From: Patescibacteria group bacterium
Lineage (GTDB): Bacteria; Patescibacteriota; JAQUNI01
NCBI GenBank assembly: GCA_028717685.1
Contig: JAQUNI010000001.1
Span: forward strand, 399,451 to 463,450
Direction of reading: 5' to 3'
DNA: 64,000 bases
The notes under the pieces are model-generated. The model worked only from the letters and a program-made list of their open reading frames with translations. It searched no databases and was not told where the DNA came from. Both the position numbers and the translations under genes were made by a program. Positions 25,252-58,640 of this stretch are shown one piece after another; position 1 is the stretch's first letter, and every line of letters begins with the position of its first letter.

Positions 25252-25318
25252 TTTAATGGAATCTTGCCGCGCCCGCTCTGGAAGCTTCGCTTCAAGCGAG
25301 GCGGGTTGGCACTTTGGA

Positions 25319-25834: not shown

Positions 25835-25980
25835 AGTGAAAAGTTGAATTCAAAGTTTAAAGTTTCTTTTGCAAAGCGATTGCTTCGCAATAATTTTGCA
25901 CTTTGAACCGCCCACCCGCAACGCTTTGCTTGCATGGCGGGCGCGGCAACTTTGAATTTTGAACCTTGAATTTTGCACTA
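25812..25980. repeat. AT-rich palindromic element, family E copy with GC core (CGCCCACCCGCAACGC...GCATGGCGGGCGCGG)
   Basis: Arms AAAGTTCAAAGTGCAAAGTG ... CACTTTGAACC / CAACTTTGAATTTTGAACC. Confidence 0.7.
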
Positions 25981-25981
25981 A

Positions 25982-27202
25982 TTATAAGACGCTCGTTAAC
26001 GAATAGATCGGCAAAATCACCGCTATAGCCATCGCGCCTACTGCCGCGCCTATAACAAGCATCAAAACCGGCTCAACAATCGTGGAAATATTCTTCATTG
26101 TTTGATCCACGTCTTCTTCATAAAACTCGGCTAATTTGACTAAAATTTCATCCAAGGCGCCCGTCTCCTCTCCCACTTCAATCACCTGGGTCACGATAGG
26201 CGGGAAGAGAAGCTTATTATGAGATAGAGCCTTGCTTAAAGCAGTCCCTTTCTGGACCTCCACAATGGAGGCCTTCACTGCTTTTTGATAATACACATTG
26301 CCTAGCGCATCTGACACTACATTTAAAGCCTCTAAAATCGGCAGCCCGGAAGCGAGCAGTGAAGCGAGGTTGCGAATAAAACGGGCAAGGTTAATCTTTT
26401 TAACGACTTTGCCGATAACCGGCAGAAAAAGATAAATTCGGTGAAAAATCAAACGCCCTGTACGGCTGCGTATCGCCTTGAAGGCGAGGAAGCCAAATAA
26501 TACAATGCCCCCTAAAATCCACCAGACATACGCGCCCATAAATTTGCTGGTCGCGATCAAGATCCGCGTCGGCAGGGGAAGACGGGCGTCAAATTCTTCA
26601 AAAATGGTAACTAATTTCGGTAAAACAAAGGTCATCATCAAAAAACCAATACCGCCCATCGCCACTAAGACTACGGCTGGATAAGTCATTGCGCCCGTTA
26701 CTTTCTTAACTAAATCACGATCTTTTTTTAGTTGCACGGCAAGCTGATTTAAAGCTTGGGTTAATGTGCCGGAAACCTCCCCGGTTTTAACCACATTCAC
26801 GTATAAATCAGGAAAAACCTTCGGATGCCTGGCGAGAGCATCACAAAAAGTTACGCCTGTTTCCACGCTTCTGTATAAATCTTGAATTACTCTTTTGAAC
26901 TTACGGTTGGCTGTCTGGCTCACTAAAATATGGAGCGCCTTGACAAGCGACAGTCCGGCTTTCAGCATCACTTCCAGATACTGCGTGAATAATACCTTAT
27001 CCATTAGGGAAATAAAACCGATTTGAGTTAAAATTTTCTGCAAAAAAAGAACTTTCCCTTTTTTTCCCTTCTCGTCAAAGTGGGTTAGCAAAAAACCTTG
27101 ACTATAAAGCCACTCCGCAAGTTTAGCTTCAGAATCCAAATCAATTTCGCCCTTTTTGACATTGCCCTCTTTATCGCGAGCCGAATAAATGTATAAAGGC
27201 AT
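25982..27202 (-). CDS. pilC: type IV pilus platform protein PilC (GspF family)
   Basis: 406 aa with two GspF repeats and three TM segments. Confidence 0.9.
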   Translation of the reverse strand: MPLYIYSARDKEGNVKKGEIDLDSEAKLAEWLYSQGFLLTHFDEKGKKGKVLFLQKILTQIGFISLMDKVLFTQYLEVMLKAGLSLVKALHILVSQTANRKFKRVIQDLYRSVETGVTFCDALARHPKVFPDLYVNVVKTGEVSGTLTQALNQLAVQLKKDRDLVKKVTGAMTYPAVVLVAMGGIGFLMMTFVLPKLVTIFEEFDARLPLPTRILIATSKFMGAYVWWILGGIVLFGFLAFKAIRSRTGRLIFHRIYLFLPVIGKVVKKINLARFIRNLASLLASGLPILEALNVVSDALGNVYYQKAVKASIVEVQKGTALSKALSHNKLLFPPIVTQVIEVGEETGALDEILVKLAEFYEEDVDQTMKNISTIVEPVLMLVIGAAVGAMAIAVILPIYSLTSVL

Positions 27203-27206
27203 AATG

Positions 27207-27347
27207 GAGAATTTTCAATTTCTAATTTTTAATTTTTATTAAATTTATAATTAACTAATTTTTAAACTTGTGTCAATCAGGAGGTAAGGGTTTGAAAATT
27301 AACTCATTAAAAATTTAATAGAAATTAGAAATTGAAAATTAGAAATT
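27207..27347. repeat. AT-rich palindromic intergenic element, family A copy
   Basis: Same arms as 10907-11044. Sits between pilB and pilC. Confidence 0.8.
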
Positions 27348-29100
27348 ACTCTTTGGTTACCCTCAACACCTCTTCCAGGGTTGTCACGCCCATCTTGGCT
27401 TTGTAAAACCCGTCTTCAATCATCCTCGTCATTCCCTCACTGATGGCTTGCTTTTCAATTTCTTCCGTGGGCGCCCGCTTTGTCGCTAAACTCTGAATAG
27501 CCTCGCTGACTTCCAAAACCTCAAAAATTCCTAAACGTCCTTTATAACCAGTGTTATTGCATTGGGCGCAGCCCCGTCCACGGTAGAATAATAAAGAATC
27601 CGGGGTGATCTTGCTGGACACGATAGCCCCTTCGCGGACCATAATCTCTAAGATTTTCTTCAGATTCACCTCACTCTCCAAATTCTGCCAAGCCGCGCGA
27701 TCAAGATGGAAACTTTCAATACAATTACTGCAAATCTTGCGCACCAATCTCTGGGCGATGATCACATTTAAGGTGGAAGCAAGAAGAAACGGCTCAATCT
27801 TCATGTCAATCAGGCGGGGAATCGCCCCAGCGGCGTTGTTCGTATGCAAAGTGGACAATACCAAATGACCAGTGAGAGAAGAATGAATCGCCATTTCCGC
27901 GGTCTCGCTGTCACGAATCTCTCCCACCATAATAATATCTGGATCTTGCCGGAGGAGCGACCTTAGGCCATTGGCAAAAGTATAACCGATTTTGGGCGCC
28001 ACCTGGCTCTGATTAATGCGGGGCATATGGTATTCAATGGGATCTTCAATGGTGCAAATATTCACCTCGGGAGTATTGAGAATGTTTAGAATACTGTAAA
28101 GCGTGGTAGTTTTACCCGATCCCGTGGGACCCGTAGAAAGAATCATGCCGTGAGGCCGATTGATATTTAATTTGACAATCTTTAAAGCATTGAGACGCAA
28201 ACCCATTTCTTCCATAGTGAACGGCTTGGCGGATTCAAAAAGGAGACGCATTACAATCTTCTCTCCATTAAAAACAGGAATTACGGAAACACGGAAAGAA
28301 ATTTTATATTCCTCATTTTCAATCTTAAACCGCCCATCTTGAGGCAGGCGATGTTCATCAATTTTGAGGTCAGAAAGCACTTTAATCCGCGCCACCACCC
28401 CTGCCAAGATCTTTTTGGGCAGACTCATCACATCCCTTAAAACCCCATCCACCCTATAGCGCACCACAATTTCTCCCTCTAAAGGTTCAATGTGAATATC
28501 AGAAGCGTTCTCGTAGATGGCATATTCCAAAAGCGTGTCCACGATTTTGACTACGGGCAGCTCTTTGGCCATTTTTCTTAAATCCTCGGCGTCTTCTGGC
28601 TCCCGAATGCCTTGTTTGTCAATAATTTCGGAGAATTCTGTTTTCAGGCTCTTGCGATACTGCTTTAAAACTTCACTGATACTGGTAGGTGTCGTCAGAA
28701 AAACCTCAATCTTCATTCCTGTCTTCTTCTCCATAAATTCAATGGTTTGCAAATCCGTGGGGTCTACCATCGCCAGTTTTAATTTCTCTTTGTCTTTCTC
28801 AAAAGCCACTACCTGATAGTTGCGCGCGATCGGCTCGGGAATGGAAAGAAGAACCTCCTTGGGAATTTTTTTCTTCTCAAGATTAACATAAGGAACCTTG
28901 GATGTTTCCGCATAATGTTCTGCTAATACCTCTTCGCTAACCATTCCTTGTTTAACCAGTTCGGCGGCTAAAGTCACCTTATCCTGCTTTGCTTGAAGGC
29001 TGGCCGCGCGAATTTTCTCCGCCGTCACTAAATTATTCTCGGTTAAAATTTTAATCAGTTCTTCGTCTTTGAAAAACATTGAAATAGAGTCAAAGCGCAA
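27346..29100 (-). CDS. pilB: type IV pilus assembly ATPase PilB (GspE family)
   Basis: GSPII_E N-domain, Walker A GPTGSGKTTT, Asp and His boxes, and a tetracysteine motif (CSNC...CAQC). Confidence 0.9.
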   Translation of the reverse strand: MRFDSISMFFKDEELIKILTENNLVTAEKIRAASLQAKQDKVTLAAELVKQGMVSEEVLAEHYAETSKVPYVNLEKKKIPKEVLLSIPEPIARNYQVVAFEKDKEKLKLAMVDPTDLQTIEFMEKKTGMKIEVFLTTPTSISEVLKQYRKSLKTEFSEIIDKQGIREPEDAEDLRKMAKELPVVKIVDTLLEYAIYENASDIHIEPLEGEIVVRYRVDGVLRDVMSLPKKILAGVVARIKVLSDLKIDEHRLPQDGRFKIENEEYKISFRVSVIPVFNGEKIVMRLLFESAKPFTMEEMGLRLNALKIVKLNINRPHGMILSTGPTGSGKTTTLYSILNILNTPEVNICTIEDPIEYHMPRINQSQVAPKIGYTFANGLRSLLRQDPDIIMVGEIRDSETAEMAIHSSLTGHLVLSTLHTNNAAGAIPRLIDMKIEPFLLASTLNVIIAQRLVRKICSNCIESFHLDRAAWQNLESEVNLKKILEIMVREGAIVSSKITPDSLLFYRGRGCAQCNNTGYKGRLGIFEVLEVSEAIQSLATKRAPTEEIEKQAISEGMTRMIEDGFYKAKMGVTTLEEVLRVTKE

Positions 29101-44681: not shown

Positions 44682-47600
44682 ATGGTAAAAAATACGGAAG
44701 GCGAGGGGGAAGAAGCGCCTTTAGAAAAAGATAAGGGGCGAAAAAAAAGAAGAGAGGTAAAAAATAAACACAAAAACAAATCAGAGCCCTTGGACCCTGA
44801 CGAGGAAAAAGATATTCCAGAGGAAACGGAGAAAAAGAAAGGAATTACCCCCGATAAAGTGCGGGCGATTTTAGATAATTTAGGGCGAGAATTGCCTCCG
44901 GAAAAATTGGAAATCATGACAAAGGGAGGAAAGGAAATTACGGTGCGCTTTCATCCTGATCTCGCGGAAAATAATTTTCCGGGTTTAATTTCCAAATTAG
45001 AAACCGAGAAGGGCGTTAAAATCATTCCTAAATGGGATGATGGAGTGGACATGGAAAAGGGGTTTGTGATTGTGTCCGAAACAGTCCCTGAAAAGCCAGA
45101 AACGGCTTTAGAACCAGCGGAGCAAGAGCTCCCACCCCCTCCATCTCCCCCTCTGGCAGGGGGAGAGCCACTCCCACCCCCTCCAAATACAGAAAAAGAG
45201 CAAAAGACCCCAGACGGGAACACCCCCGAAAAAAGCGCTAGCGAACCAGAGGAAAAAGGCAATGGAGAGCCACTCCCACCCCCTCTTGCCTCCCCGCTCG
45301 AGGCAGGGGGAGAAGAATCTCTTTTAGAAGAGATCAAATCTAAACAAGAAGAAACCGAGCCTAAACAGAAAGAGGTAAAGATTGAGGAGGTTATTTTGGA
45401 AAAAACGGCGGCAAAGACCGAGACAGAAAAAAAAACAGAAAAAAAAGAAATCCCGCCGCGGGTTCAAGAAGTTTTAGACCGCTTAAACGCGGAGTTGGAA
45501 AAGCATAACGATGTAGAGGAAGTTAATGTTGTTTTTAATTATAAACTGGCAAATAGCCCCCTGGGTGCAGATATTAAAAAGCTCCGACCCCAAAGCTACA
45601 AAAAAATTCAAATAATCAACTATTGGAAAGAAAAAGGGGGCGTTTTTCCTCTTGGTTTTATAATTGAAGAAATAAAAAAGGGGAAATCCGAAGAAAAAGA
45701 AGCAACCCCCGAAAAAAAACCCGAGGAAAAGCCGCTCCCACCCCCTCTTGCCTCCCCGCTCGAGGCAGGGGGAGAAGAATCTCTTTTAAAAGAAATCAAA
45801 TCTAAACAAGAAAAGACCAAGCCCCCACAAAAAACAGAAGAAAAGAATGTCCCTCCGAAAGAAGAAAAAAAAGAAACAGAAATTCCTCAAAATGTGGAAG
45901 TATTACTTTCACTCTTAGATTCAAAAATAGCCGAATTTCAAACAGCCCATCCAGAAGTAAAAGACATTGACATTCTTTTTAGCGAGGAACTTATAAAAAA
46001 ACTGGGGGTAGAATATGGCGATGAAAAACAACAAGCAATCTGGCAAAAGATTGACTCCATCAAAGAAAAAGGATTCAATGTGCTAAATCGTATTTTTGAA
46101 GACAAGAAGATACCCGAAGAAGAGGCGGTAAGGATTGAGAAGGTTGTTTTGAAAAAAGCAGGGGCAGAGACCAAAACAAAAAGAAAAATAACCCCCACGG
46201 AAAAAGGCGAGATAAAGGAAGAGCCTTCCCGGGAAAAAACCACTCCCACCCCCTTTAACTCCCCCTCCCTCCTTCGTCCGCCAGAGGCGGACTTCGGCGG
46301 GCAAGCAGGCAGGGGGAGCGCCACAGAAAAACCGCGAGAACCAATATTCGCGGCGCGGAAAACAGAGGATAAAACGAAAGGACCCAGAGCAGATGAGGAG
46401 AAGCAGAAACCGGGCAAAGTGGCGCGAGAGGCAGAGACCCTAATGGAAATACAACCCTCTCCATCCCGCGTGTCAGAAGAACGGCTTACTGAAAAGCGCA
46501 AAGAATATTTAGAAGCCAAAAGACTGCGCGGCAAATTTATTGGCCGCGGCGAATTTAAAGGCAAAGAGGGAGAAGCGAAACTTGCTCAAATCGGTGAAGA
46601 ATATAGCAAAATGCGCGCTGAATACATTCGCGGCAAAGCGTCAGAAGTATTGAAAGAACAGAAGCTGCCCGCGACGGAATTGAAAACAAAGGTCGTGGAA
46701 AAGCTTCTGGAAGAATACAACAAAGAGGACGGGGAACGGGAAAAATTGATTGTGGGCAGGGAAAAAGGCTTAGGGCAGAGGTTTAAAGAATGGTGGCGCC
46801 GCCATCCTAAAGCGCGAATGCTCGTTGGTTATGGCTTAACCGGCGCTTCGGTAGGGAGTATGCTTTCAGGGCAGCTCTGGCTGACTCCTTGGCTTATCGG
46901 CGCCCGAGCCGCTTTTGCAGGGACGGGCGCGGCTCTAGGCACCGAAGGGATGTTATCCCGCTATTCTAAAACCTTAGGCGAAAAAGGGCTTGTGAATGAG
47001 TTAGTTAAATTTAACAAAGAAGAAAAGGCTAAGCTCAAAAAAATCAAAGACAAAGGAGAACAGGAAAAAGCGCGCCAAAAAATGATTAACGATAACATTG
47101 CTAAAATCTCGCCCGAGAATTTAGCGCGCGAAATGGGGCGCGTCAAAGCCCTGCAAGAGAAAAAGGGGGTAAAACTAGAGAAGATAGGACCATACGGCGC
47201 AGTGCTTTCGGCTCTCCGGGCGCGGGAGCAAGAGCTTTTAAAGAAACGGATAACAGAAGCAATGGAAAAAGGAGAAAAGACTAAAGAAGATTTGCTTTTT
47301 GAAGCTATAAACTCCGGTTTGGAAAGAGAAGCAAGGGAAATGGACGAAAATGTAGAAAAGGCGGGAGAGGCGGAAAGAAAAAAGGCAATCAAAAGGTGGG
47401 TCTTCAGCAGTAGCGCCGGAGCAATCACAGCCGGACTCACCGCTTGGTGGGGATTTCACAGGCTTGGAGAAATTTCAGGCAAGGGAAAAATAGCAGGGAG
47501 CGCGGCTCACGCAAAAACGGCTCTGGGTCCGCCAGCGCCAGAGGGGTTGGCAAAAAATTTTGAGGTTGTTGCCGCCAAGGGCGACTCGGTCTGGAAAATG

Positions 47601-48449
47601 GCAAAGCGCGCTTTGGCGGAAAAATATGGCAGCCGCTTTACCAATCTTGACGAAGCGCGCCGCACTTATGTCATTGACGCCGTAAAAGATAAAATCGCGA
47701 AAAACCCCGCGCGTTTTGGTCTAATTGATATAGACAGGGTAAAAATTGGCCAAAAAATAGATTTTGGCGGATTAATAAATAATAAGAGTTTAATGGAAGA
47801 AACCTTTGGCAAAGCGGGACGTCTAACGGGAGAACAAGCAAAGAATATTTTAATCAATAATGAGACAGTGCAAGAATTTCACCATCTCCATCCGGAAATT
47901 CGGTTGGACAGCGAAAATATAGATTCAATTTTGGCAGGCAGAGGGAGAGAAATCCTGGGAACGGAACCCGCGGCGGCGCAGACAGATATCAGCGCGCCAG
48001 AAATTGCTCCCGAAGAAACCCCGAGCTTGGAAGAAAGCGCGATTCCTACTGAAACTGAAGCTGCAAAAACAGAAACGCCGCAGATAGAAGAGACGCAAAG
48101 TCCAAAGACGGAAACCCCTTCTCCGGAAGTTGCTCCAGAGCAAGATATATCCGAAGCAATGATTCAAGAAATTCCCGACTGGACTCCGGAAAAGATTGCC
48201 AAGACCACTCTGCCCTTGATTCAAAAAAATCCAAAACTGAATACGGTCAAGGGAATTTTAGAACATTATCTAGCTAATCTAAAAAACGGCGAGATTTTTT
48301 TACCCGAGCAAGAACAAGCCAATACTGCTATCAAAGAAATAACTAAAAGAACCGAGGGACTCGGAGAGAGCGTGGCGGAAAGATACGAAAAAATCCTGTT
48401 GGAAAACACCAAAGTTTTCATAGGCATTGCCACGATGGGGAGAGAATAG
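44682..48449 (+). CDS. giant Lys/Glu-rich repeat protein with central TM segment and C-terminal LysM-like motif
   Basis: 1255 aa. The repeat PPPLASPLEAGGEESLL(E/K)EIKSKQE occurs at least three times, each copy encoded by a GC-rich family R element. A hydrophobic region lies at 46795-46960. LysM-like GDSVWKMAKRA...IGQKIDF near the C-terminus. Confidence 0.7.
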   Translation: MVKNTEGEGEEAPLEKDKGRKKRREVKNKHKNKSEPLDPDEEKDIPEETEKKKGITPDKVRAILDNLGRELPPEKLEIMTKGGKEITVRFHPDLAENNFPGLISKLETEKGVKIIPKWDDGVDMEKGFVIVSETVPEKPETALEPAEQELPPPPSPPLAGGEPLPPPPNTEKEQKTPDGNTPEKSASEPEEKGNGEPLPPPLASPLEAGGEESLLEEIKSKQEETEPKQKEVKIEEVILEKTAAKTETEKKTEKKEIPPRVQEVLDRLNAELEKHNDVEEVNVVFNYKLANSPLGADIKKLRPQSYKKIQIINYWKEKGGVFPLGFIIEEIKKGKSEEKEATPEKKPEEKPLPPPLASPLEAGGEESLLKEIKSKQEKTKPPQKTEEKNVPPKEEKKETEIPQNVEVLLSLLDSKIAEFQTAHPEVKDIDILFSEELIKKLGVEYGDEKQQAIWQKIDSIKEKGFNVLNRIFEDKKIPEEEAVRIEKVVLKKAGAETKTKRKITPTEKGEIKEEPSREKTTPTPFNSPSLLRPPEADFGGQAGRGSATEKPREPIFAARKTEDKTKGPRADEEKQKPGKVAREAETLMEIQPSPSRVSEERLTEKRKEYLEAKRLRGKFIGRGEFKGKEGEAKLAQIGEEYSKMRAEYIRGKASEVLKEQKLPATELKTKVVEKLLEEYNKEDGEREKLIVGREKGLGQRFKEWWRRHPKARMLVGYGLTGASVGSMLSGQLWLTPWLIGARAAFAGTGAALGTEGMLSRYSKTLGEKGLVNELVKFNKEEKAKLKKIKDKGEQEKARQKMINDNIAKISPENLAREMGRVKALQEKKGVKLEKIGPYGAVLSALRAREQELLKKRITEAMEKGEKTKEDLLFEAINSGLEREAREMDENVEKAGEAERKKAIKRWVFSSSAGAITAGLTAWWGFHRLGEISGKGKIAGSAAHAKTALGPPAPEGLAKNFEVVAAKGDSVWKMAKRALAEKYGSRFTNLDEARRTYVIDAVKDKIAKNPARFGLIDIDRVKIGQKIDFGGLINNKSLMEETFGKAGRLTGEQAKNILINNETVQEFHHLHPEIRLDSENIDSILAGRGREILGTEPAAAQTDISAPEIAPEETPSLEESAIPTETEAAKTETPQIEETQSPKTETPSPEVAPEQDISEAMIQEIPDWTPEKIAKTTLPLIQKNPKLNTVKGILEHYLANLKNGEIFLPEQEQANTAIKEITKRTEGLGESVAERYEKILLENTKVFIGIATMGRE
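45129..45165 (+). repeat. family R GC-rich repeat copy inserted in-frame in CDS 44682-48449
   Basis: CTCCCACCCCCTCCATCTCCCCCTCTGGCAGGGGGAG. Further in-frame copies at 45271-45312 and 45735-45774, and a degenerate one at 46243-46320. Confidence 0.8.
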
Positions 48450-48725: not shown

Positions 48726-49862
48726 TTATTTTGCAGCCGGTGCAGGCGGGTCAGATGGTGGAACTATTCTATTTACATCCACCAATTTTGCGCCATTACC
48801 TTCCGCTGCTTTCTGGATTAGTTCCTCTTTCCAATAGCACGATCTCAAGTAGACTTGGGCTATGCCATGGGCAGATTCGCCTTTGTAGCCGCGCTTTTGG
48901 TACCGCTCTAGCAGAGAGGCATACAGCTCCGCTCGTGCTTCATCCTTATTGTTCGTATTAAAGGCACGGGTCAGAGCCTGGCTTGTGGCTTCAGCATCTG
49001 CTTTGGCGACGTCAATTTTGACCTCCAAACACTTTGTTGCTGCATCCAAGTCAACCTTGGTGACAAATCCTTTTGTGTCTGGAATCAATGCCGTGGCTGT
49101 TGCCTCGGCAGTTGCCTTAGCTTCAGCTCTGACTACTGACATATCAATAGCGGGAATTTGAATTCCAGTGGCAGTTGTCAAAGCCTTGATAGCAGTCTCT
49201 GAAGCTAAACTAGCCGTATCAGACGCGGTTTGGGCTAACCCTTTCGCCTCACCAGCAGTTTTCTGCGCTCCTTCCGCAATCTTGCGAACCTCGGCGAGCT
49301 CGGTTTCCAACTTACTTACTTTTTCTGTGAGCTCTTTTAAGGTCTTAGCAATTGCTTCATCACAGATTTTCTTGATCTGATCTGGGCAAAGTGGAGTAGC
49401 TGGATCAATAATTCTCCAACCGCGCTTTTTTAGAGCAGCAGCGAGGGCGTTCTCAAAAGGTTTAGGCTCCATATTGCCCGCGACAATAGGGGACAACATC
49501 TTTTCAATGTCCTCTATGTCTGGCTTTTTCCCATTCGCATCTACGACCTGGCTATAGAGAGCCCAGGCTAAAGCACGATTTCCGATCCTGCGGGCTTGGT
49601 TGTCCTGATCGTTAATAATAGTCGTGCCGCCGCCAGGACTGCCTTGCCCTTGCTTAGGAAGATTCTGCACCTGGGTTTTTAAGCCAGAGATCGCAGTATC
49701 CATACCTTTAAGGATGTTAGTGATTCGCGTGATATCCTGATCCTGCTCCTTGACAACCTTGACCAATTTCCCAAAGTCCCCTGGATCAACCTTATCCGCA
49801 GCCTGCGCCGCAAGGAGGGGGAGAAACAGCGAAATCAATACGAGAACAATAAACTTTTTCAT
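48726..49862 (-). CDS. secreted coiled-coil protein (signal peptide MKKFIVLVLISLFLPLLAAQA)
   Basis: AAGGAAAGGAG SD lies 9 nt upstream of the internal ATG at 49862. Ala/Thr/Lys-rich coiled coil. Confidence 0.6.
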   Translation of the reverse strand: MKKFIVLVLISLFLPLLAAQAADKVDPGDFGKLVKVVKEQDQDITRITNILKGMDTAISGLKTQVQNLPKQGQGSPGGGTTIINDQDNQARRIGNRALAWALYSQVVDANGKKPDIEDIEKMLSPIVAGNMEPKPFENALAAALKKRGWRIIDPATPLCPDQIKKICDEAIAKTLKELTEKVSKLETELAEVRKIAEGAQKTAGEAKGLAQTASDTASLASETAIKALTTATGIQIPAIDMSVVRAEAKATAEATATALIPDTKGFVTKVDLDAATKCLEVKIDVAKADAEATSQALTRAFNTNNKDEARAELYASLLERYQKRGYKGESAHGIAQVYLRSCYWKEELIQKAAEGNGAKLVDVNRIVPPSDPPAPAAK

Positions 49863-49884
49863 TATAGATTTCTCCTTTCCTTGC

Positions 49885-50442
49885 TTACTGAACTGGATAC
49901 TTTTGTTCCAGATCATCTAGTACCTTACTACGCTCTGACTTTTGACCCTGTTGCGGAGCTGGTGGCGGTGGCGGTGGAGGATTAATTTTCTCCTCTTTTT
50001 TCGGTATTGAGAAATAGAAAGCCCCATCCTGGACTCCCTTACCGCTAACGGACACAGCGTAAAAACCGGGTTCCGTTATGGTCTCTTTCGGGGTCCATAC
50101 TGCTTCACCCTCACTGCCAAATGACTCCGTGGAGCCTTTTACCTCTTCTGCCGGACTATTCACTTTGACTTTCAAATGTTTAGCCTTGTCGGGATCGGAA
50201 ACTTTAAATTTGATGCTCTCAAGTATTCCAGTGTTTACTGTAGAATCCGATGGCCAGGTCATTGTGACCGTCGCCAATGTTTCTGGCACCTTTTCGCCGC
50301 CGCAACCGCGGACAGAGAAAAAGATTATAAGACCAATAACCGCTAAAACACCGATTACGACATAACCCCAACGAGGGAATTTGAATCCGCCGCCTTGTGC
50401 GCCTTGTGCCGCGTTTCTCTGTGCCATTCTGTCTCTTAACAT
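49885..50442 (-). CDS. membrane-anchored protein with beta-rich ectodomain and PPPPPPPAP tract
   Basis: 185 aa with an N-terminal TM helix. Its start overlaps the stop of the upstream gene in an ATGA junction. Confidence 0.55.
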   Translation of the reverse strand: MLRDRMAQRNAAQGAQGGGFKFPRWGYVVIGVLAVIGLIIFFSVRGCGGEKVPETLATVTMTWPSDSTVNTGILESIKFKVSDPDKAKHLKVKVNSPAEEVKGSTESFGSEGEAVWTPKETITEPGFYAVSVSGKGVQDGAFYFSIPKKEEKINPPPPPPPAPQQGQKSERSKVLDDLEQKYPVQ

Positions 50443-50804
50443 TATTTGACCTCCTTTTCTGGATTTGTAATCCTAACTGCTGTCTCATATATCGTTTTAG
50501 CTCTCGGAACACTGTCGAGACCACAATTCGCGATAAACGTAGCTTGGTCCGTATTCACTATATTTTGGGCGCTATTAAAGCCTTTTCCGCTCATTGATTT
50601 CGCTGTTTCCTCATCAATATTGAGCTCAATAATCAAAGTTTCCCAAGGCTCAATTAGATTGAGTTTTTTTCTGATGGGCAAAAGTTCCTCATCTAACGAG
50701 GGTATTAAACGATCCTGCCAATCCTCCAACCCAGAGACCCTTTTTTGTAGGACGCCGACCCAAATAATTAAAGCCACTATTAGTATCCCAACTATCCATT
50801 CCAT
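50442..50804 (-). CDS. small membrane protein (first gene of minus-strand secreted operon)
   Basis: GGAG SD 7 nt upstream of the second ATG. TM helix WIVGILIVALIIWVGVL. Confidence 0.5.
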   Translation of the reverse strand: MEWIVGILIVALIIWVGVLQKRVSGLEDWQDRLIPSLDEELLPIRKKLNLIEPWETLIIELNIDEETAKSMSGKGFNSAQNIVNTDQATFIANCGLDSVPRAKTIYETAVRITNPEKEVK

Positions 50805-51049
50805 TTTCATTCTCCTTTTATAATTTCACGCAACTAAAATTAACCTAGAAACACAAACACTCAAACTTTCTTTTAAAAACACGCCTCCTTCCTTTAAATT
50901 GCCATAAAATTTTGAAACCAATTTACAAAGAACAAATTCCCGTTTTTCAGGAATTCACGCTTCAAGCGCTCTAAAACCAAAGATTACCGATAAAGCCGAG
51001 GTTTTTAAAAGGCTGAAGCCTAAATTCCCAAGCTGAATTTTAACACTTA

Positions 51050-51078
51050 TTTATAGCATATCTGAAAAACTTTGTCAA
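51050..51078 (-). promoter_or_regulatory. sigma70-type promoter (minus strand) TTGACA-17-TATAAA driving 50804-48726 operon via about 240-nt leader
   Basis: The minus strand reads CCTTGACAAAGTTTTTCAGATATGCTATAAATAAG. The TTGACA-n-TTTTCAGATAT segment recurs at 51426-51450 on the plus strand. Confidence 0.55.
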
Positions 51079-51164
51079 GGATTTTTACCTGAAAATCCAA
51101 AGTAATCCAGATTTTGGCTAAAATAAGGCACAAATGGAATAGGGAATTAGGAATCATGAATCAG

Positions 51165-51360
51165 GGATAGACCCCCTCCCCGCCCGCCATCGCTTCGCTC
51201 AGGCGAGGCGGGCGGGCACCTCCCCCTTCCGCCCAAGGCGGACAGGCAGGGCAGGGGGGAGTGAGAATCTTCCCCTCCTTGGAAGAAAGGAGGGGATAAT
51301 AAATCCTCCCCTCAACCCGTGGGAGGTTTTTTAAAAAGGGGTCTCTAATAATTCTGCGGA
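51165..51360. repeat. composite GC-rich repeat island (modules GCCCGCCATCGCTTCGCTCAGGCGAGGCGGGCGGGC; CCCCTCCTTGGAAGAAAGGAGGGGATAAT)
   Basis: Shares modules with 48455-48660 and 58330-58640. Confidence 0.7.
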
Positions 51361-51368
51361 ACGATCCT

Positions 51369-51396
51369 ATACAGGGGCTTGACAGATTTTTTAAAC
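51369..51396 (+). promoter_or_regulatory. sigma70-type promoter TTGACA-16-TAAAAT upstream of long leader/non-coding region preceding secreted operon
   Basis: CTTGACAGATTTTTTAAACCTGCTAAAATC. A second TTGACAGATTTTCAGATAT copy lies at 51426. Confidence 0.5.
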
Positions 51397-52033
51397 CTGC
51401 TAAAATCATTTTTTAGATAAAAAGCCTAAAAAATCTTGACAGATTTTCAGATATAGTGCTAAGCTTAAAATCGGGATAAATAAAACAGCAAGAAATATCA
51501 AGAAGTAAGGAGGGCTCTTGTAGCTCTTTTTAAAATTCAGAAGTAACGCCCGCCCAAGTTTTGCAAAGCAAAATTTAAGCGGGAATGCATAGACAATGGA
51601 TTATTTGAAATAAGAGTAGTCCACTGTCTGTTCATTAACAAAAATATTTTTTCGCGCTATGGCAGATGCCTTTGTCGTATCCCTCCGCGTGGCTACTATG
51701 GAGGCAAGAAGCAAAGAGCATCTGCCATAGCCTTTATCGTCTCACAAGTGTAGTTTCTTAAAGTCTAGGTCGTGCCTGACATTGAGGAGTGAGCCCTAGC
51801 AACAACCAAAGATGGTTTTGTAGGTGCAGATCACAAATCAACGAAGGCGCGAGTATAGCCGCTTTCAATTCCTAGCCATTATAGAAAGCGGCTATACCCC
51901 TTAATCTTCAGAAAGGAGGGAGAAAAAAGGGGCTTAGTGTTCCGTTCGGTTAGTAAATAATGTATCTAAATGATCTAAAGGTTCGAAAAAAGTTGGCATC
52001 TAATTAAGAGAGCCAAAAAGAGGAGAAATTGAA

Positions 52034-52750
52034 ATGAGAAAGATACTGATTTCTATGTTCGTTCTGGTTTGTATGATGGCATTCACTGGTATAGCTCTGG
52101 CTAGTAATACTGCTTCGTGGACGTTCGATATTAAAGTACAGGTGCAACCTTGGATCCAGAAAAACTCCGGTAATCCTAGCTTAATGAAGATGGCGGATCT
52201 GGAGCAGGATAAGGATAAAACGGAAACCACTTTCGGGTGGTATGAAAGTTTTTATAGCAACGTTCCGTTCACGAAGACATTCACAGGAACTAATCCAGCC
52301 GGTGATGCTTATCCAATTTTTGCACGTGAAGAAAGAGCGGTAGGTGGAGCTGGACTAGGAACTTATGATAGACTTTCCACACGTATAACATTTGAAACAG
52401 TGGTCAACGGAATACTGGGAGGAGAAGTAGGACGAGACGATCAAAGTGCGGTGTTTAATGCAGGAACCCAGAATAGTGCAGGCGTACCCGCGGGTACAGG
52501 TTGGACGCAAGGCGGCTTTGATCCTAATGTTTATTCAAACCCCAATGCTTCTATAACTTTCGGCACTCCGCACGATGGCGAAGTTTGGGAGAAGTTCTTT
52601 GTTAAGGCGGATAGAAAAATGCCAGATTATGCCACTGATAATGCATGGTATCAATCAGCGGATGCTGGTATTTATGCATTAACAATCACCGAAACCTTAG
52701 TTGGTCAAAATACAGTGCAGTCATCGGATGCTTACGAGGTCTTCCCATAA
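52034..52750 (+). CDS. secreted protein A (signal peptide; Gly/Thr/Asn-rich; C-terminal DAGIY..T.T motif)
   Basis: AAGAGGAG SD. Signal peptide MRKILISMFVLVCMMAFTGIALA. Shares the motif W..SADAGIYALTITETLVGQ with the next gene. Confidence 0.65.
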   Translation: MRKILISMFVLVCMMAFTGIALASNTASWTFDIKVQVQPWIQKNSGNPSLMKMADLEQDKDKTETTFGWYESFYSNVPFTKTFTGTNPAGDAYPIFAREERAVGGAGLGTYDRLSTRITFETVVNGILGGEVGRDDQSAVFNAGTQNSAGVPAGTGWTQGGFDPNVYSNPNASITFGTPHDGEVWEKFFVKADRKMPDYATDNAWYQSADAGIYALTITETLVGQNTVQSSDAYEVFP

Positions 52751-52991
52751 TCTAATGACATCCGGAAGATCATTTAATGCTAAATGAGCACAGAGCAGTT
52801 TAGGAAAAAAAAGTTTTTCCTACTCTGCTCTATTTTTTTATTCAAAAACTTGACGTAATTTATTGTATGTGCTAATATTTCAGGTCCTATATCAGGTTAG
52901 AACTTTGACAATTAGCTACAGAATTAGAAAACGCAAGGGGAAAATTGTATCGTATTGTACTAAATTCTAGGGAGAAGGGAGGTTTTGAAAA

Positions 52992-53867
52992 ATGCAAAGG
53001 CAAAAAATCTGGACAAGCGCTATGGTTTTTACTGTTCTACTAGCAGTAGCAGCTTCTTTGGTCTTCGCTTTTGTGGAGATTAAAGAGCAAACTAATCTAA
53101 ACGGCGTTATCAGCGAGCCGGGAAACACCGCCTCAATGCGGAAAGGCAAGACACTCTTGGTAGAAAGCAATCAGGATGTCAAAATCGCTTTTTCCACTAC
53201 AGGAGACATTAAAAGGGAGGAACGAGGTTCAGATGGCAAGGGTTTGAACCGTTTTGATGAAATCAAAAAAACAACGGTCAAGCTGGGGATTTCCGGAGAA
53301 AACGACTATGAGTGGCAAGGCAATCTGGAAGATCTGAATGGCTTAACAACCGACACTATTACCCCAGACCAAGATGATAGAATCTGGTGGAATTTGAAAG
53401 TTAAGGCGAAAACAAGTTTGTTGAGCTTTGATAAGGATAAGGAGTGGGACGCATCCTTGGATGCGGGAATTTATCAAACAAGTATCACTATCACCGTAAT
53501 CACAGTGGGGCAACCGCCGCGTCCATCTTTGGAATTTATTCCTGATGTCGCGGAAGGCGGATCGTCATTATTCTGCGTGGAAATCCACAATAGTGGAACC
53601 GAAAAGAAAGACAGCGCGGAAAATGTCCGAGTCAGAATGAGAGTTTTAAACGGCGCGAAGTATGTTAAGGCACTGGATTATAACCCCAAGATTGGTAATA
53701 TTGAAAGCGAAGAGAGTAAAGGTTTCTTGTTTACTATCATCACTAATACCAAGTGGGACAGTGCGCCTCTGGACACAGAAATTAAGGTGGAAATAGAAAT
53801 TGTCCGAGAGGACAACTGGCCCGAACACAATGAAGGCAAGATCGCCTATTATAGCTTGGTGAAATAA
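52992..53867 (+). CDS. secreted protein B, partial paralog of A
   Basis: GGGAGAAGGGAGG SD. Signal anchor. Motif WDASLDAGIYQTSITITVITVGQ. Confidence 0.65.
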   Translation: MQRQKIWTSAMVFTVLLAVAASLVFAFVEIKEQTNLNGVISEPGNTASMRKGKTLLVESNQDVKIAFSTTGDIKREERGSDGKGLNRFDEIKKTTVKLGISGENDYEWQGNLEDLNGLTTDTITPDQDDRIWWNLKVKAKTSLLSFDKDKEWDASLDAGIYQTSITITVITVGQPPRPSLEFIPDVAEGGSSLFCVEIHNSGTEKKDSAENVRVRMRVLNGAKYVKALDYNPKIGNIESEESKGFLFTIITNTKWDSAPLDTEIKVEIEIVREDNWPEHNEGKIAYYSLVK

Positions 53868-53879
53868 GGAGGTGGAATA

Positions 53880-55235
53880 ATGAAAAGGTTTGTGACGTTT
53901 AGTATTGGATTCTTTTTAGTGTTGGTCTTCAGTGGTAATATTCTCGCGGAAAAGGTGGGACCGCCGCGAATTTACATCACCGTCCATAAAGGCAAAGCCG
54001 AGACTGCTATTCTCTCTTTGCAGGGAGTGGTACTGAATGAAAAGGTCTTCCTTTACCTCTGCGACATCACTGTTGACCGCAAAGGCAACTACAGCTTTGA
54101 AAATCTAAAGGGGTGGAAATATTCCGCCTTGGACTGGGTAAAACTTTATAAGCTCTCTGTCGCGGAGGAAAAAGTTATAGAAGACCCAAATCATCCCATA
54201 ATTATTACTTCTCCAGCCCAAGAAGAAGCAAGATTACCTAAGAAACGAGTGGTAGCTTACTTTCCTTATGAAGAAAAAGACGTTCTCTCTTTAAGAAAGG
54301 AAGCGATCACCTATATGGGGATCAAAGTGCAGGTTCCATTTGATGTGAAACCCGGGCAATATTACGCGGGAATAATGTCGGAACCGGTTGATTTCCAAAC
54401 GCTTAGGGGGATCGTGGACGGCAAAGCTATTCAAGTTCAAAAGAAGACTCGGATCGCTATCCCTGTAATTATTACTGTCCCGGGCGGGGTAGTGAAAAAA
54501 ACAGGCAAGATTGCGACAGATCCAGAAACTTCTTTACCTGTGCTTCACGCAGATGTACAGCAGAAAGAGATTAGAATTTCCGCCACTTTTGAAAACACAG
54601 GGAACATAATAGAATACGCCAAAGGGGAAGCGCGGATTGTCGGTAAAATAGACGGCAGAACCTATGCGGTTGTGCCGATGAAAGCATTAAACCCTTCATC
54701 GGTTGATGGCGCGGGAGAAATTTTTCCGGAAACATTAAGAGACTTTGAAGGCATTGTTTCACGACCTCTGCCTGCGGGAGATTATAAGGTAAAATTGGCA
54801 ATCAACTATGGCGTCAAATTTCGGGAAGCGAGGGCTGAAGCCGAAATCACTGTTTCCGAAGCTGTCGCCCAAAGCCAAAAAGATCTCTTGATGCTGGCGG
54901 TGGAGCCTGCTTTTTTAAATTTACGGATAAAACCAGGACAAACCACGATGGAAAGCATAGAGTTAACGAATTTGGATTATCAGCCCCTTTCAATAAAAGC
55001 GGCGATTGTGCCTGAAGGATTGTCTTGGCTACAGATTAACCGGAGCGACAAAATAGAAGTTGATCTGCTTGCCAACCAGATGAAAAAGATTGTTTGCAGA
55101 ATAAGCGTGCCCCGGGACGAAAAAACGGGAGAAGCGCAAGTAAAAAGAGCAAAAATTATACTTGTGCCTGAAAGAGGTAAAACAGTGTCCATAGATGTAG
55201 AAATCGTTCCTGGTTCAGGAACAAAAGGTGATTGA
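53880..55235 (+). CDS. secreted beta-rich protein C
   Basis: TAAGGAGGTGG SD. Signal peptide MKRFVTFSIGFFLVLVFSGNILA. Beta-strand-rich repeats. Confidence 0.65.
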   Translation: MKRFVTFSIGFFLVLVFSGNILAEKVGPPRIYITVHKGKAETAILSLQGVVLNEKVFLYLCDITVDRKGNYSFENLKGWKYSALDWVKLYKLSVAEEKVIEDPNHPIIITSPAQEEARLPKKRVVAYFPYEEKDVLSLRKEAITYMGIKVQVPFDVKPGQYYAGIMSEPVDFQTLRGIVDGKAIQVQKKTRIAIPVIITVPGGVVKKTGKIATDPETSLPVLHADVQQKEIRISATFENTGNIIEYAKGEARIVGKIDGRTYAVVPMKALNPSSVDGAGEIFPETLRDFEGIVSRPLPAGDYKVKLAINYGVKFREARAEAEITVSEAVAQSQKDLLMLAVEPAFLNLRIKPGQTTMESIELTNLDYQPLSIKAAIVPEGLSWLQINRSDKIEVDLLANQMKKIVCRISVPRDEKTGEAQVKRAKIILVPERGKTVSIDVEIVPGSGTKGD

Positions 55236-55254
55236 AACCAAGGAGATGGGTAAG

Positions 55255-57126
55255 ATGATGGTCAAGAAGAGTTTATTGATAGCAATGTTTATTAGTTTAT
55301 GTATTCTAATAATGGCTGCTGCGGAAGAACAAGTCGTAATTGACCCTGGTCCGACAGTTGCAACCGGGATTACATTGGGAAATACACCAATCGTCCCGAA
55401 ACTAGATTATGTGGAAACAGAAATCCGAACCATAAGTCAAGAATTGAGTGCGGCTACTGGTATCCAAATCCTTGTGGATCAAAATGTAGAAGGGACAGTC
55501 ACGATTGGCCCTCTGGAACAAGTTCCCTTGGAAACAGCGTTAGATCTAATCTGCGCTTCGGGGGGTTTGGAATGGGTAAAAGCAAAAAATTATTATTTAA
55601 TTCTTATGCCGGACCCAGATAATATGGCTTTCAAATCGCATGTAGTAACTGAAGGGGTAAAAATCAACAACCTGGATGCCAGAAGCATACCCGACCTACT
55701 CAAACAGTACGACTTTTACTTAAAAGTAGACCCGCTTAATAACCAGATCTTTATTACGGCTCTGCCTGGTTCAATGATGAACAGGATAAAAGGGGCGATT
55801 GAGAGAGTGGACACAGCCGTGCTTAAAGAAGTGGAAATCCGTCTGGTTACTTTGGAGTATTCTCGGCGCGATAAGGAAGAGATTGGCTTGGATAGTCTTA
55901 ACGCACTCCTCACCGAAGATGCGGCAAAAAGAGATATCTACGGCATTCAAATCGGCGAGAATACATTCGGCGCCACAAATGCCGAGATAGCACCATTACT
56001 CCGACTAAAAATCTTAGCAAGCCGAGAGGAAATCAAAATCACGGGCGATCAGAAAGCGACCGTTCGTGAAGGTAAAATTGCCAAAATCAACTTTAGTAAA
56101 AAAGGCGATATCTTCCTGACAACTGGGATCGGGGGGGTTGCTAATAATAACTTTTACAATTTGGAAAAGGCAACCGTGCAGGCAGAGCAAGGCGTAGAGA
56201 CAGAAATCCTGCGGGTTACTTCTGATAATCACATCCTTATAAATGTAAAAGGCATTTTGGAATACATTCAAGAGACACCTGATGCGATAAAGACCGGTCA
56301 AGCCATCTGGACTGAAAGCGGCAAGGTGGATACTCAAGTAAATATGCAAAACTACAGGACAATCTGGATTGGCACTTTACGTCGCGAAGTAAACAAGCAA
56401 ACACGGGAAATAACTGGGAGAGGTAAGGATAACCGAGAGATTGAAATCGCTTTCCTTTTGACTGCAAATGTCGTTGGCACAAAACCACCTGCCCCTCTAG
56501 AGATAGAGGCGAAGATTGAAAAATTCTTTGCTGCAAAAGAAAAAGGCACAATACACCCTCAATTCTCGTTTGGTGTTGGCGGTTGGGTGCAAAGAGCTGA
56601 AGATGCTTGGATTCCTTCCAGAGATTCTGTTGATCCTATTCCAATAGGAGAGATAAAAGTGAAACTCTGGGAAAACCTCAATATATTTGGCGGTGGTGGC
56701 GCAAAAGGGAAAAAGAACCTCGGATATTTCGGTGTTCAGTATGGCGACTTTCTAACCATCGGTGCTGGGGGAATTAAAACCAATCAGTTATCAAGCGTTA
56801 AGCCGTTTCTAACTACTGGTGTGTCTTTAGGCACTGATCGTGTAAGGTTAAATATAGAAGCTGTCTATCTTCCTGACGCCCCCAAACAAAGCGGCATTAA
56901 AGCTGGAATCAACTTCCGTTTCGGGGGATTTGCTACTAAACAAGTTTCTCAAGCCACAGAAAACGCAGAGGTGGAGCCAGTTGCAGAAGCTCCGATTGCC
57001 AAAGGGGCGACCCAGATCATTGAAAAGGAAAAAATAATAGAGAAAGAAATTCTTGTGCCCTTGGCTGATCCCGAAGAATGGAATAAAGCCATTGAACGGG
57101 GCAAACAAGAACAAGAAGTAAAGTGA
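55255..57126 (+). CDS. STN/secretin-like N-domain protein with degenerate secretin-like core and C-terminal Gly-rich beta domain
   Basis: IRTISQELSAATGIQILVDQNVEGTVTIGPLEQVPLETALDLICASGGLEWVKAKNYYLI matches the STN (secretin/TonB N-terminal) pattern. A later stretch ...NYRTIWIGTLRREV...REIEIAFLLTANVV resembles the secretin C-domain. N-terminal TM/signal. The start is ambiguous (55228, 55246 or 55255). Confidence 0.55.
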   Translation: MMVKKSLLIAMFISLCILIMAAAEEQVVIDPGPTVATGITLGNTPIVPKLDYVETEIRTISQELSAATGIQILVDQNVEGTVTIGPLEQVPLETALDLICASGGLEWVKAKNYYLILMPDPDNMAFKSHVVTEGVKINNLDARSIPDLLKQYDFYLKVDPLNNQIFITALPGSMMNRIKGAIERVDTAVLKEVEIRLVTLEYSRRDKEEIGLDSLNALLTEDAAKRDIYGIQIGENTFGATNAEIAPLLRLKILASREEIKITGDQKATVREGKIAKINFSKKGDIFLTTGIGGVANNNFYNLEKATVQAEQGVETEILRVTSDNHILINVKGILEYIQETPDAIKTGQAIWTESGKVDTQVNMQNYRTIWIGTLRREVNKQTREITGRGKDNREIEIAFLLTANVVGTKPPAPLEIEAKIEKFFAAKEKGTIHPQFSFGVGGWVQRAEDAWIPSRDSVDPIPIGEIKVKLWENLNIFGGGGAKGKKNLGYFGVQYGDFLTIGAGGIKTNQLSSVKPFLTTGVSLGTDRVRLNIEAVYLPDAPKQSGIKAGINFRFGGFATKQVSQATENAEVEPVAEAPIAKGATQIIEKEKIIEKEILVPLADPEEWNKAIERGKQEQEVK

Positions 57127-57199
57127 TAAAAGAGGCGGAAGGGAGACTCTAAAAAAATTCTTTTCGCCTCATCTAAATAAAAGAAAGGATGGAAAGAAA

Positions 57200-58228
57200 A
57201 TGAGAACAGTCAGGGTGATTGTCGTTATTGTAATAATACTTTTACTAGCCGGCGGAGGAGTATATCTCTTCTGGCCTAAGACCTCTGAAACGAATACTTT
57301 GGATCAGGAGCTAGCAGATTTAAAGGCTGCAAACGCCACTCTGGTCACGGAAAAGACTGAAACCGCAAATAAAATTTCCGAACTGGAGAAGGCAAAAAAA
57401 AGCCTGACCGAGGCTAATACCACATTAACCAGTCAGGTTGCAAATCTAGCTGGCGATCGTGATGCAATAAAGCAAAGCGAACTTTACTTTGCCAAGGTCT
57501 ACCGCGAAGGACTAGCTGTAAACGAAAAAGCCAATAAAGATAATGGAGTATTACGCAAAGAAATTGAACGGCTTAAAGCGGAAAATAAACAGCTAGTGGA
57601 GGACAATAAACTCCTGCAAACTCAATATAATGAACTCCTCACAGAAAAGAAAGCAGCCGAGGCAGCGAGAAAAGTTGCGGAAGATAAAGTGGCTGGTCTA
57701 AACAGAGATATTGACGCCGCAAAGCAAGGACAAGATGCCGCGGAAATGAAAGCAGTAAAAGCCGAACAGAATCTTACGAGGCTAGAAGCGGAAAAGGCAA
57801 AAGCGCAAAGCGAAATGGTGACCTTGAACGCTAAAATCGCTAACGATTTGGTGGATAAAAAGGCGCTTCAAGATCAGCTTGACACTGCCAAAAAGGCGCT
57901 GGAGGCGATGGAAGGACGGCTGGGAGAGTCTGACAAATTAGTCGCTAAATCACCGACGATGGATACGGTAAAGGAAAACTTGGCTCTAAAAGCCGAAATT
58001 AGATTCCTTTATGCGACAATCCTCGTGGCTACCTCATCCGAGAAGAATCTCTCGGACGAAAGCAGAAGAAAGGCGACTAACCTGATGGTTAGGTTGACCT
58101 ACCAATCAGACGCGGATCTGCGCTTTAAAGCGGCTGCCAAAGTTATGGAAGAAATGCCACTAGATGGCGCCGAAAGCGTTGACCAGCTCCACACACGTTG
58201 GGGAGCCTGGAGAAAAACGCAAGAATAA
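57200..58228 (+). CDS. membrane-anchored long coiled-coil protein
   Basis: GAAAGGATGG SD. N-terminal TM helix VIVVIVIILLLAGGGVYLF. About 280 aa of Ala/Lys/Glu coiled coil. Confidence 0.6.
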   Translation: MRTVRVIVVIVIILLLAGGGVYLFWPKTSETNTLDQELADLKAANATLVTEKTETANKISELEKAKKSLTEANTTLTSQVANLAGDRDAIKQSELYFAKVYREGLAVNEKANKDNGVLRKEIERLKAENKQLVEDNKLLQTQYNELLTEKKAAEAARKVAEDKVAGLNRDIDAAKQGQDAAEMKAVKAEQNLTRLEAEKAKAQSEMVTLNAKIANDLVDKKALQDQLDTAKKALEAMEGRLGESDKLVAKSPTMDTVKENLALKAEIRFLYATILVATSSEKNLSDESRRKATNLMVRLTYQSDADLRFKAAAKVMEEMPLDGAESVDQLHTRWGAWRKTQE

Positions 58229-58247
58229 ATAGTACCTTGAATCATTA

Positions 58248-58304
58248 CCCATAAGCTTTAGCCTATTAAATATTAGACTTCAAGCTTATGGGATTTTTTT
58301 ATTT
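58248..58304 (+). terminator. rho-independent terminator after secreted operon
   Basis: CCCATAAGCTT-(23-nt loop)-AAGCTTATGGG followed by ATTTTTTTATTTT. Confidence 0.65.
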
Positions 58305-58329
58305 TAATATTACTTTACCTCCCTCGCGA

Positions 58330-58640
58330 GGAGAAATGAAAAGTGAAACCCCCTAAATCCCCTTTATCAGGGGGATTTTAATTTCTTCCTTCTGTGACCC
58401 ACGCGCTCTAGGAGAGAGTTGTTGGCTCCATAGTGGCGTTAGCCCTATGGAGTCAGGATGCAAGCCGTAAAGAAAAAATATGATCAGACTTTAATGCTGT
58501 TTCGCATTGCGGCTCCACAGCCTGCCCGCCATCGCTTGCGCTTCAGGCGTTAGCGGGCGGGCCCCTCGCTTCGCTCGGGGACTATGGAGCCAACAGACCC
58601 CCTCCAACTCCCCCTTGGTAAGGGGGAGTGAAATCAAGCC
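58330..58640. repeat. composite GC-rich repeat island with 14-nt outer inverted arms GTTGGCTCCATAGT / ACTATGGAGCCAAC enclosing about 146 nt
   Basis: Arms at 58421-58434 and 58581-58594. Inner modules CCTGCCCGCCATCGCTTGCGCTTCAGGCGTTAGCGGGCGGGC. Flanked by hairpins CCCCTTTATCAGGGGG and CTCCCCCTTGGTAAGGGGGAG. Confidence 0.7.

Follow-up and report, generated by a model that had tools for sequence, protein, structure and literature searches.

What does a secretin gene do on the chromosome of a bacterium of the candidate phyla radiation (CPR), and what could the secreted proteins encoded beside it have to do with such a channel? The question is raised by a locus of five consecutive plus-strand genes, here called A to E, in a 64,000-nt stretch of DNA (the window, in whose positions all gene coordinates are given) from a Patescibacteria genome. 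All five products are entered as hypothetical proteins in the NCBI source record (proteins MDD5626819-23, locus tags PHW01_02290-02310). We propose, with a probability of about one half, that A to D form a self-contained, Sec-dependent, secretin-gated module which exports or assembles surface proteins and is tied evolutionarily to WxL/WxLIP clusters. The evidence is the homology of C and D to known families, the paralogy of A and B, the conservation of gene order and the signals for transcription. A first-pass annotation, made from the sequence alone, had described five genes here, and the open reading frames (ORFs) are all present (Table 1).

The proteins encoded by genes A to D

By sequence, D is established as a secretin homologue; we call its secretin domain derived because it aligns with bona fide secretins and yet lacks a canonical segment. 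A signal peptide precedes the N0, N1, secretin and Gly-rich domains (Table 1), the last of which ends in ...INFRF and is followed by a 67-aa charged tail. N0 matches PF21305 (E 9.3e-6, 25.8 bits against a cutoff of 27), and profile searches of the PDB return the N0 of PilQ (E 2e-5) and the N1 of GspD. The N-terminal region also matches TIGR02517 and TIGR02515, and the N-terminal half matches the M13 pIV PHROG (E 6e-7). The STN/secretin-like N-domain that the first-pass annotation had noticed in the fourth gene is thus borne out.

Close relatives of D are few, only five among 5.8 billion protein clusters. Those at 44-47% identity match PF00263 (Secretin, E about 4e-6) and PF03958 (Secretin_N), weakly, and within this clade the Pfam secretin matches reach only to about position 130 of 169. 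The more distant relatives, which lie on high-GC metagenome contigs, are secretins of the ordinary kind. One of them, from contig L014, matches PF00263 at E 2e-44 and aligns with D over N0-N1-secretin (BLASTP E 6e-26). The Gly-rich region, ~120 aa long, contains by eye about eight alternating-hydrophobic stretches, and its ...RF end is the C-terminus of the protein in relatives. It has no Pfam match and nothing meaningful was found by PDB profile search; it may form a small membrane-associated beta domain.

With GspD, PilQ and pIV, D shares the N0-N1-secretin order and a Sec signal peptide, and its short architecture with a single N1 is closest to pIV. It differs from them in having no ATPase, platform protein, pseudopilins or pilotin linked to it, in the divergent C-terminal third of the secretin domain with the Gly-rich domain added, in the charged tail found in this genome, and in belonging to a phylum reported to be without secretins.

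The structural model of C (AlphaFold2 (AF2); predicted local distance difference test (pLDDT) 77.6) has three immunoglobulin (Ig)-like beta-sandwich domains after a signal peptide. A direct Pfam/NCBIfam scan gave only a faint match to WxLIP_PGBD. An exhaustive hidden Markov model (HMM) search with C returned 808 representative clusters, of which most are full-length proteins (380-570 aa) and 209 reach E <= 1e-10; 60 of 100 family representatives match WxLIP_PGBD (DUF916; best E 6e-12) and five match WxLIP_HBD (DUF3324). A joint profile of the C family matched both domains of the solved WxLIP structure (E 2.4e-14). On these alignments C is clearly a WxLIP homologue over both domains. The earlier statement that none of the proteins belongs to a nameable family therefore holds for direct Pfam and NCBIfam scans, whereas profile searches assign C to WxLIP and D to the secretins. 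The C family, some 800 representative clusters, has had no annotated function.

Firmicute WxLIP ends in a transmembrane (TM) helix (PMC10599100). C has neither a C-terminal TM helix nor a hydrophobic C-terminus, and a third Ig domain stands in its place; 123 of 126 family members likewise lack a C-terminal TM helix. The other three (P0035, P0036 and P0037) end in a TM helix and a basic tail, like Firmicute WxLIP, and may represent a stage between anchored proteins and those linked to a secretin. No match of C to the PapD family was found in Pfam, and its likeness to chaperones is one of fold only.

A begins with a Sec signal peptide (...GIALA/SN); the AF2 model (pLDDT 71) of what comes after it is an all-beta sandwich of jelly-roll or Ig-like type, with an N-terminal strand (26-37) carried on a low-confidence or disordered linker. 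Such a strand on a disordered linker is typical of strand-exchange subunits. It has also been noted for WxL domains (PMC9772566). The A family comprises seven non-identical close homologues and orthologues in three further lineages, with the invariant motifs YxNxPF, GD..P..AR.E, DRL.T, PH.G.V and DA...Y.

A and B had been described as partial paralogues, and this is supported by BLASTP (E 7e-7 over 53 residues) and by the A-family HMM, which matches B at E 1.7e-7 and also matches B orthologues of other loci. B starts with a signal peptide or anchor, continues with an A-like beta domain up to about residue 175 and ends in a domain of ~115 aa, which has no Pfam match and looks Ig/CARDB-like; its orthologue in L001 is 48% identical. 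The W..S.DAGIY-type motif reported for the pair is indeed common to both, but its DAGxY element is the generic 'tyrosine corner' of Ig-type domains, and we rejected it as a diagnostic motif. The nearest PDB matches of the A profile at this stretch are Ig domains, at non-significant E values of 0.06-0.3. Otherwise, PDB profile searches with the A family gave nothing meaningful, the matches to designed proteins being low-complexity artefacts. Neither A nor B matches any Pfam family at E <= 1, WxL (PF13731) included. A has no W-x-L and B has a single W-N-L, unmatched at the aligned position of A, so that the paired Trp-x-Leu motifs are absent from both.

Published WxL clusters combine a small and a large paralogous secreted beta protein with one WxLIP (PMC10599100, PMC9772566), and in the Firmicute system a beta-hairpin of WxLIP is predicted to insert into WxL (PMC10599100). 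The likeness of the present locus to these WxL/Csc clusters can be summarised as (i) homology of C to WxLIP across both domains; (ii) a pair of paralogous secreted beta proteins, of which the longer has an additional domain, beside the WxLIP homologue, all with signal peptides; (iii) the tethered N-terminal strand of the A model. The differences are as plain. A and B lack the Trp-x-Leu motifs and the WxL match, the extra domain of B lies C-terminal and not N-terminal to the shared domain, and C has its third Ig domain and no TM anchor. No LPxTG protein occurs in the module and a secretin always adjoins. Nor are the hosts gut Firmicutes; they are a CPR bacterium and environmental bacteria of low and of high GC content.

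Conservation of the module and its CPR host

The order of one or two small signal-peptide proteins, a C-like protein and a D-like secretin recurs in at least seven divergent lineages. Besides the window it is found in L001, L002-L005 (including NCBI assembly GCA_964624135.1), L007, L089, L090, L091 and eleven high-GC contigs (L011-L021). Across these loci identity is 22-48% for C and 24-47% for D, and in each case the neighbouring genes are unrelated; when the other genes of the relatives were compared with the window by BLAST, nothing beyond the module was in common. No secretion ATPase, platform protein or pilin was seen in or next to any copy of the module (for the high-GC loci, in a partial gene scan). 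In particular, no GspE/PilB, GspF/PilC or (pseudo)pilin of a type II secretion system (T2SS) or type IV pilus lies beside D, either in the window or in the related loci. The five genes had been expected to be conserved together. This holds for A to D, which recur in many unrelated contigs without pilus genes, but not for E.

In L090 (526-15585), a HAMP histidine kinase and a sigma-54-dependent response regulator precede the module and a 1,620-aa S8 peptidase with PKD domains follows it, a context that hints at regulated expression and possible additional cargo. In L089 (3427-11689), ~18 small genes lie on the same strand downstream of the C-D pair, among them those for Peptidase_M15_3, a helix-turn-helix (HTH)/sigma-70 region 4 protein, DUF6745, an isochorismatase and a QRPTase_N protein. 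This run may be a phage-like or mobile region.

The L089 run, with its Peptidase_M15_3 and HTH protein, is one of the observations that would fit a mobile element with a pIV-type secretin, a filamentous phage or another, as the source of the locus, which would then be its remnant or its cargo. The pIV match of the N-terminal half of D, the repeats that flank the locus (contig L006 breaks in both islands) and the patchy distribution would fit such a source as well. We regard it as extremely unlikely. No Zot/pI ATPase, replication, coat or integrase genes are found in or beside the locus, the neighbouring genes have no phage matches, and no relatives of C or D were found in 2.9 million viral contigs. 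The GC content equals that of the chromosome, the flanking repeats are dispersed (also at 18-48 kb), and the conserved partner of the secretin is a WxLIP homologue, not a phage protein. The locus also differs from an Inoviridae morphogenesis module in that only the N-terminal half of D is pIV-like and pI/Zot, coat and replication genes are absent.

GyrA of the window is 96% identical to that of a Candidatus Doudnabacteria metagenome-assembled genome (MAG; JBAZQX01) and 52-60% identical to those of dozens of other CPR genomes, which places the window on a CPR (Patescibacteria) chromosome. CPR bacteria are reported to lack PilQ and GspD, which has been read as fitting the absence of an outer membrane (PMC6744442; PMC9166423). 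A secretin gene is unexpected here for this reason.

The window does contain a type IV pilus cluster (Table 1), and no secretin is encoded in it. D might then be the missing PilQ-like secretin of a pilus or competence machinery 23 kb away, with A to C as unrelated neighbours. That the cluster has PilB, PilC, pilins, PilM and PilN without a secretin, and that the N0 of D is most similar in the PDB to that of PilQ, would agree with such an assignment. We nevertheless consider it very unlikely, since a D-like gene adjoins a C-like gene in every related locus, with no pilus genes there. Moreover, D lacks an AMIN domain and its neighbourhood is not of the pilMNOPQ type, the closest species representatives have no D, and CPR pili are generally secretin-less (PMC6744442).

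The CPR chromosome itself, with its monoderm-type genes (RNase Y, YmdB and a G5-DPBB protein), raises a different prospect. D might be exported from a cell without an outer membrane into the outer membrane of a host bacterium, or into an S-layer-like sheath, where it would act as conduit or anchor at the point at which episymbiont and host touch, with A to C as a contact complex. Some secretins, PulD and pIV among them, are able to insert themselves into lipid bilayers. In the low-GC clade of D the canonical C-terminal secretin motif has been lost and a separate Gly-rich beta domain, with an aromatic residue at its end, has been gained, and both an outer membrane and PilQ are reported to be absent from CPR (PMC6744442). 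This proposal, a pure inference, seems to us improbable. The high-GC relatives have an ordinary secretin (PF00263 E 2e-44), most simply a part of the outer-membrane system of the cell itself, and N0 and N1 normally face the periplasm of the producing cell.

A model for secretin-gated export

From the homologies and gene order above we infer how C meets A and B, how these pass D, what drives transport, where in the cell the proteins lie and what purpose they serve. All four proteins of the module would cross the cytoplasmic membrane by their signal peptides. Oligomers of D would form a secretin-type gated channel in an outer layer of the envelope. Soluble C, with its PapD-like Ig domains, would be the periplasmic or surface partner of A and B; it would bind them once they are beyond the cytoplasmic membrane, beta-strand complementation being the probable mode, and would either hand them to the D channel or pass through it with them. 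The terminator that closes its gene suggests A as the abundant or major subunit, secreted or on the surface, and B, which is A-like with an extra Ig-like domain, would be a minor or adaptor subunit. The module has no ATPase; transport would be driven by folding or assembly, as in chaperone-usher and curli systems. E would be an accessory particular to this lineage, a coiled coil anchored in the membrane. For a CPR episymbiont, adhesion or decoration of the surface would be the likely use.

Compared with chaperone-usher pili (Pap, Fim, Csu, CFA/I), the channel is a secretin, no usher (PF00577) is present, no sequence homology to the chaperones or pilins was detected and C has three domains rather than two. 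Curli (CsgG/CsgE/CsgF) offer a parallel in an ATP-independent outer channel, a small periplasmic accessory and Sec-delivered subunits, though the channel and subunit families are unrelated and the likeness is an analogy of principle only.

The locus could instead be a system dedicated to exoprotein secretion and not an appendage. A and B would then be soluble effectors released through D, for example enzymes that have a conserved polar site, lectins or binding proteins, with C as a periplasmic escort or plug. We judge this unlikely. No enzyme or lectin family was found for them by Pfam, NCBIfam or PDB profiles, and the terminator after A suggests a stoichiometric excess as expected of a structural subunit. 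A small and a large paralogue together with a WxLIP homologue also fit the architecture of a surface complex (PMC10599100).

A bolder form of our proposal is that A to D are the founding example of an ATPase-independent 'WxLIP-secretin' pathway, in which beta-sandwich subunits, complemented by a strand, are brought by an escort of Ig fold to a secretin that builds a surface fibre or adhesin. This we hold to be doubtful. If it were true, some CPR bacteria would either own an outer-membrane-like layer in which a secretin can sit or deploy the derived secretin, with its additional beta domain, into the host envelope at contact.

Several points weigh against the secretin-gated export module itself. 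The site of a secretin in a CPR cell is the main unexplained point. The D of the window has no direct PF00263 match at E <= 1 and the canonical VPxLGDxPxxGxxF segment is missing from it, so channel function could be altered. A and B are tied to C and D by adjacency only. No convincing structural or sequence relative was found for the A/B fold, and since Trp-x-Leu motifs and a WxL match are lacking too, 'WxL-like cargo' is an analogy only. The invariant polar residues of A (N76, D91, R98, E100, D112, R113, H180 and D210) could point to a site for a ligand, a metal or catalysis and not to a fibre subunit. Finally, D-specific patterns were not found in 185,579 species representatives, including the relative with 96% GyrA identity, with MAG incompleteness as a caveat, which suggests that the module is rare and patchy in distribution.

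The first-pass reading of the locus as a secretion or surface-appendage system apart from the type IV pilus survives in part. The secretin D, a pilus cluster without one, the co-conservation of A to D and the lack of pilus genes beside the module speak for it; E is not co-conserved, A has its own terminator, the repeats said to bracket the locus are genome-wide and C is not without a family.

Known secretins serve as outer gates in machines driven by ATP (T2SS, the type III secretion system, type IV pili and filamentous phage). If the export module is real, a secretin whose only partners are a WxLIP homologue of Ig fold and small proteins of the beta-sandwich type would be a new use of this channel, and the poorly understood WxL/WxLIP complexes of Gram-positive bacteria would gain a counterpart that bears an outer channel. 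No description linking DUF916/WxLIP or PapD-like proteins to secretins was found in the literature. The components belong to known superfamilies, and as far as our searches show what is new is their combination, the derived form of the secretin and the CPR host. That the module occurs on a CPR chromosome bears on the CPR cell envelope and on contact between episymbiont and host. The four genes A to D are a compact set, amenable to heterologous expression.

Transcription signals, gene E and dispersed repeats

Table 1. Positions of genes, protein domains and transcription signals at the locus, and of the type IV pilus cluster (window positions, or residues where marked aa).
Feature	Position	Strand	Details
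Gene A	52034-52750	+	238 aa ORF
Gene B	52992-53867	+	291 aa ORF
Gene C	53880-55235	+	451 aa ORF
C, DUF916-like domain	aa ~28-200	+	disordered insert 95-125
C, DUF3324-like domain	aa ~220-325	+	
C, extra Ig domain	aa ~339-445	+	
Gene D	ORF 55228-57126, best start 55255	+	632 aa from GTG 55228; 623 aa from ATG 55255
D, N0	aa ~59-125	+	632-aa numbering
D, N1	aa ~133-198	+	632-aa numbering
D, derived secretin domain	aa ~240-436	+	632-aa numbering
D, Gly-rich beta C-terminal domain	aa ~445-565	+	632-aa numbering
Gene E	57200-58228	+	342 aa ORF
Sigma-70-like promoter match, first of tandem	51379-51406	+	TTGACA-16-TAAAAT; consensus scan only
Sigma-70-like promoter match, second of tandem	51444-51471	+	weaker; consensus scan only
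Leader hairpins	51657-51732; 51853-51897	+	long, perfect or near-perfect; seen in the sequence
Intrinsic terminator directly 3' of A	52792..52842 (hairpin 52792-52831)	+	then U run UAUUUUUUUAUU
Promoter-like site ahead of B-C-D-E	52850..52878	+	TTGACG-17-TAATAT with upstream TG (extended -10); predicted by consensus scan
Intrinsic terminator after E	58248..58305 (hairpin 58248-58292)	+	-19.3 kcal/mol, z -5.3, then U run AUUUUUUUAUUUU
Type IV pilus cluster	20127-29100	-	PilB, PilC, three pilins, PilX-like, PilM, PilN, PilO-sized ORF

The locus had been taken for a single five-gene operon. The terminator that follows A (-21 kcal/mol, z -4.6, with none of 200 shuffles as stable) and the promoter-like site before B do not fit one plain operon. 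Since the hairpin in the D-E spacer (-18.7 kcal/mol) also has no U run, the predicted layout is A by itself, then B-C-D-(E). In many pilus operons the major-subunit gene is followed by a terminator, and the layout here resembles these. An intrinsic terminator at the end of the locus, proposed earlier, is found after E, and a second hairpin lies further downstream (58355-58378).

Upstream of A, 1,223 nt (50811-52033) have no credible ORF and contain long hairpins, in agreement with the ~1.2 kb of structured non-coding DNA first described. An Rfam search of this region returned no family, only sub-threshold noise. The tandem promoter-like matches lie ~560 nt 5' of A, ahead of the hairpin-rich leader, and the number of such consensus sites in the region is not above that of shuffles. 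The leader (51379-52033) may be a regulatory 5' untranslated region.

A strong Shine-Dalgarno motif had been claimed for every gene. It is present for A (GAGGAG), B (GGGAGG) and C (AAGGAGGTG), and E has a weaker one (AAAGGA). For D, AAGGAG stands nine nt 5' of ATG 55255, GTG 55228 has no such motif, homologues align from the Met at 55255 and one gene call gives the 623-aa protein. D most likely starts at ATG 55255 rather than at GTG 55228, and therefore does not overlap C. The N-terminal signals claimed for each gene are seen in the translations, being signal-peptide-like in A, C and D, a signal peptide or signal anchor in B and a TM segment in E.

E has an N-terminal TM anchor and then a coiled coil of ~300 aa, with generic coiled-coil matches only. 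It is probably co-transcribed with the module. We place it outside the conserved core because no homologue was found in the loci compared, except in the identical contig L006.

On the other side of the 1.2-kb intergenic region, and diverging from it, are three minus-strand genes (48726-50810; 396, 185 and 122 aa). Their products are secreted or membrane proteins of no family, with one weak alanine-zipper match only, and the genes are not conserved beside the module in other loci.

The GC-rich islands that had been said to bracket the locus (~51141-51330 and ~58400-58640) are composites of repeats with short segments in common. Parts of them recur at 4.7, 18.3, 19.7, 35.2, 45.1, 46.2 and 48.5 kb of the window, so they are not specific to the locus, and we rejected them as element boundaries in favour of dispersed chromosomal repeats. 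A family of short GC-rich palindromic repeats occurs also at 51.2, 58.5 and 62.3 kb, in a surrounding chromosome of 42% GC. One example, ACCCCCTCCAWCTCCCCCT, is present in five copies where none is expected by chance. Contig L006, an independent short-read assembly, is identical to window positions 51229-58448 and ends inside both islands, as would be expected of an assembler that breaks at repeats. The same repeat families on both sides and elsewhere, together with a GC content that is uniform across locus and chromosome, argue that the locus truly belongs to this genome.

The repeats also touch a coding sequence. A plus-strand ORF at 44682-48449 (1,255 aa, K/E/P-rich), which has no Pfam or PHROG match, contains a GC-rich dispersed repeat in frame, encoding PPPPSPPLAGGEPLPPPP and, twice, PLPPPLASPLEAGGEES, at about 45.1 and 46.2 kb. 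Either the dispersed repeats have been inserted in coding sequence or the protein is built of repeats, and either would be unusual.

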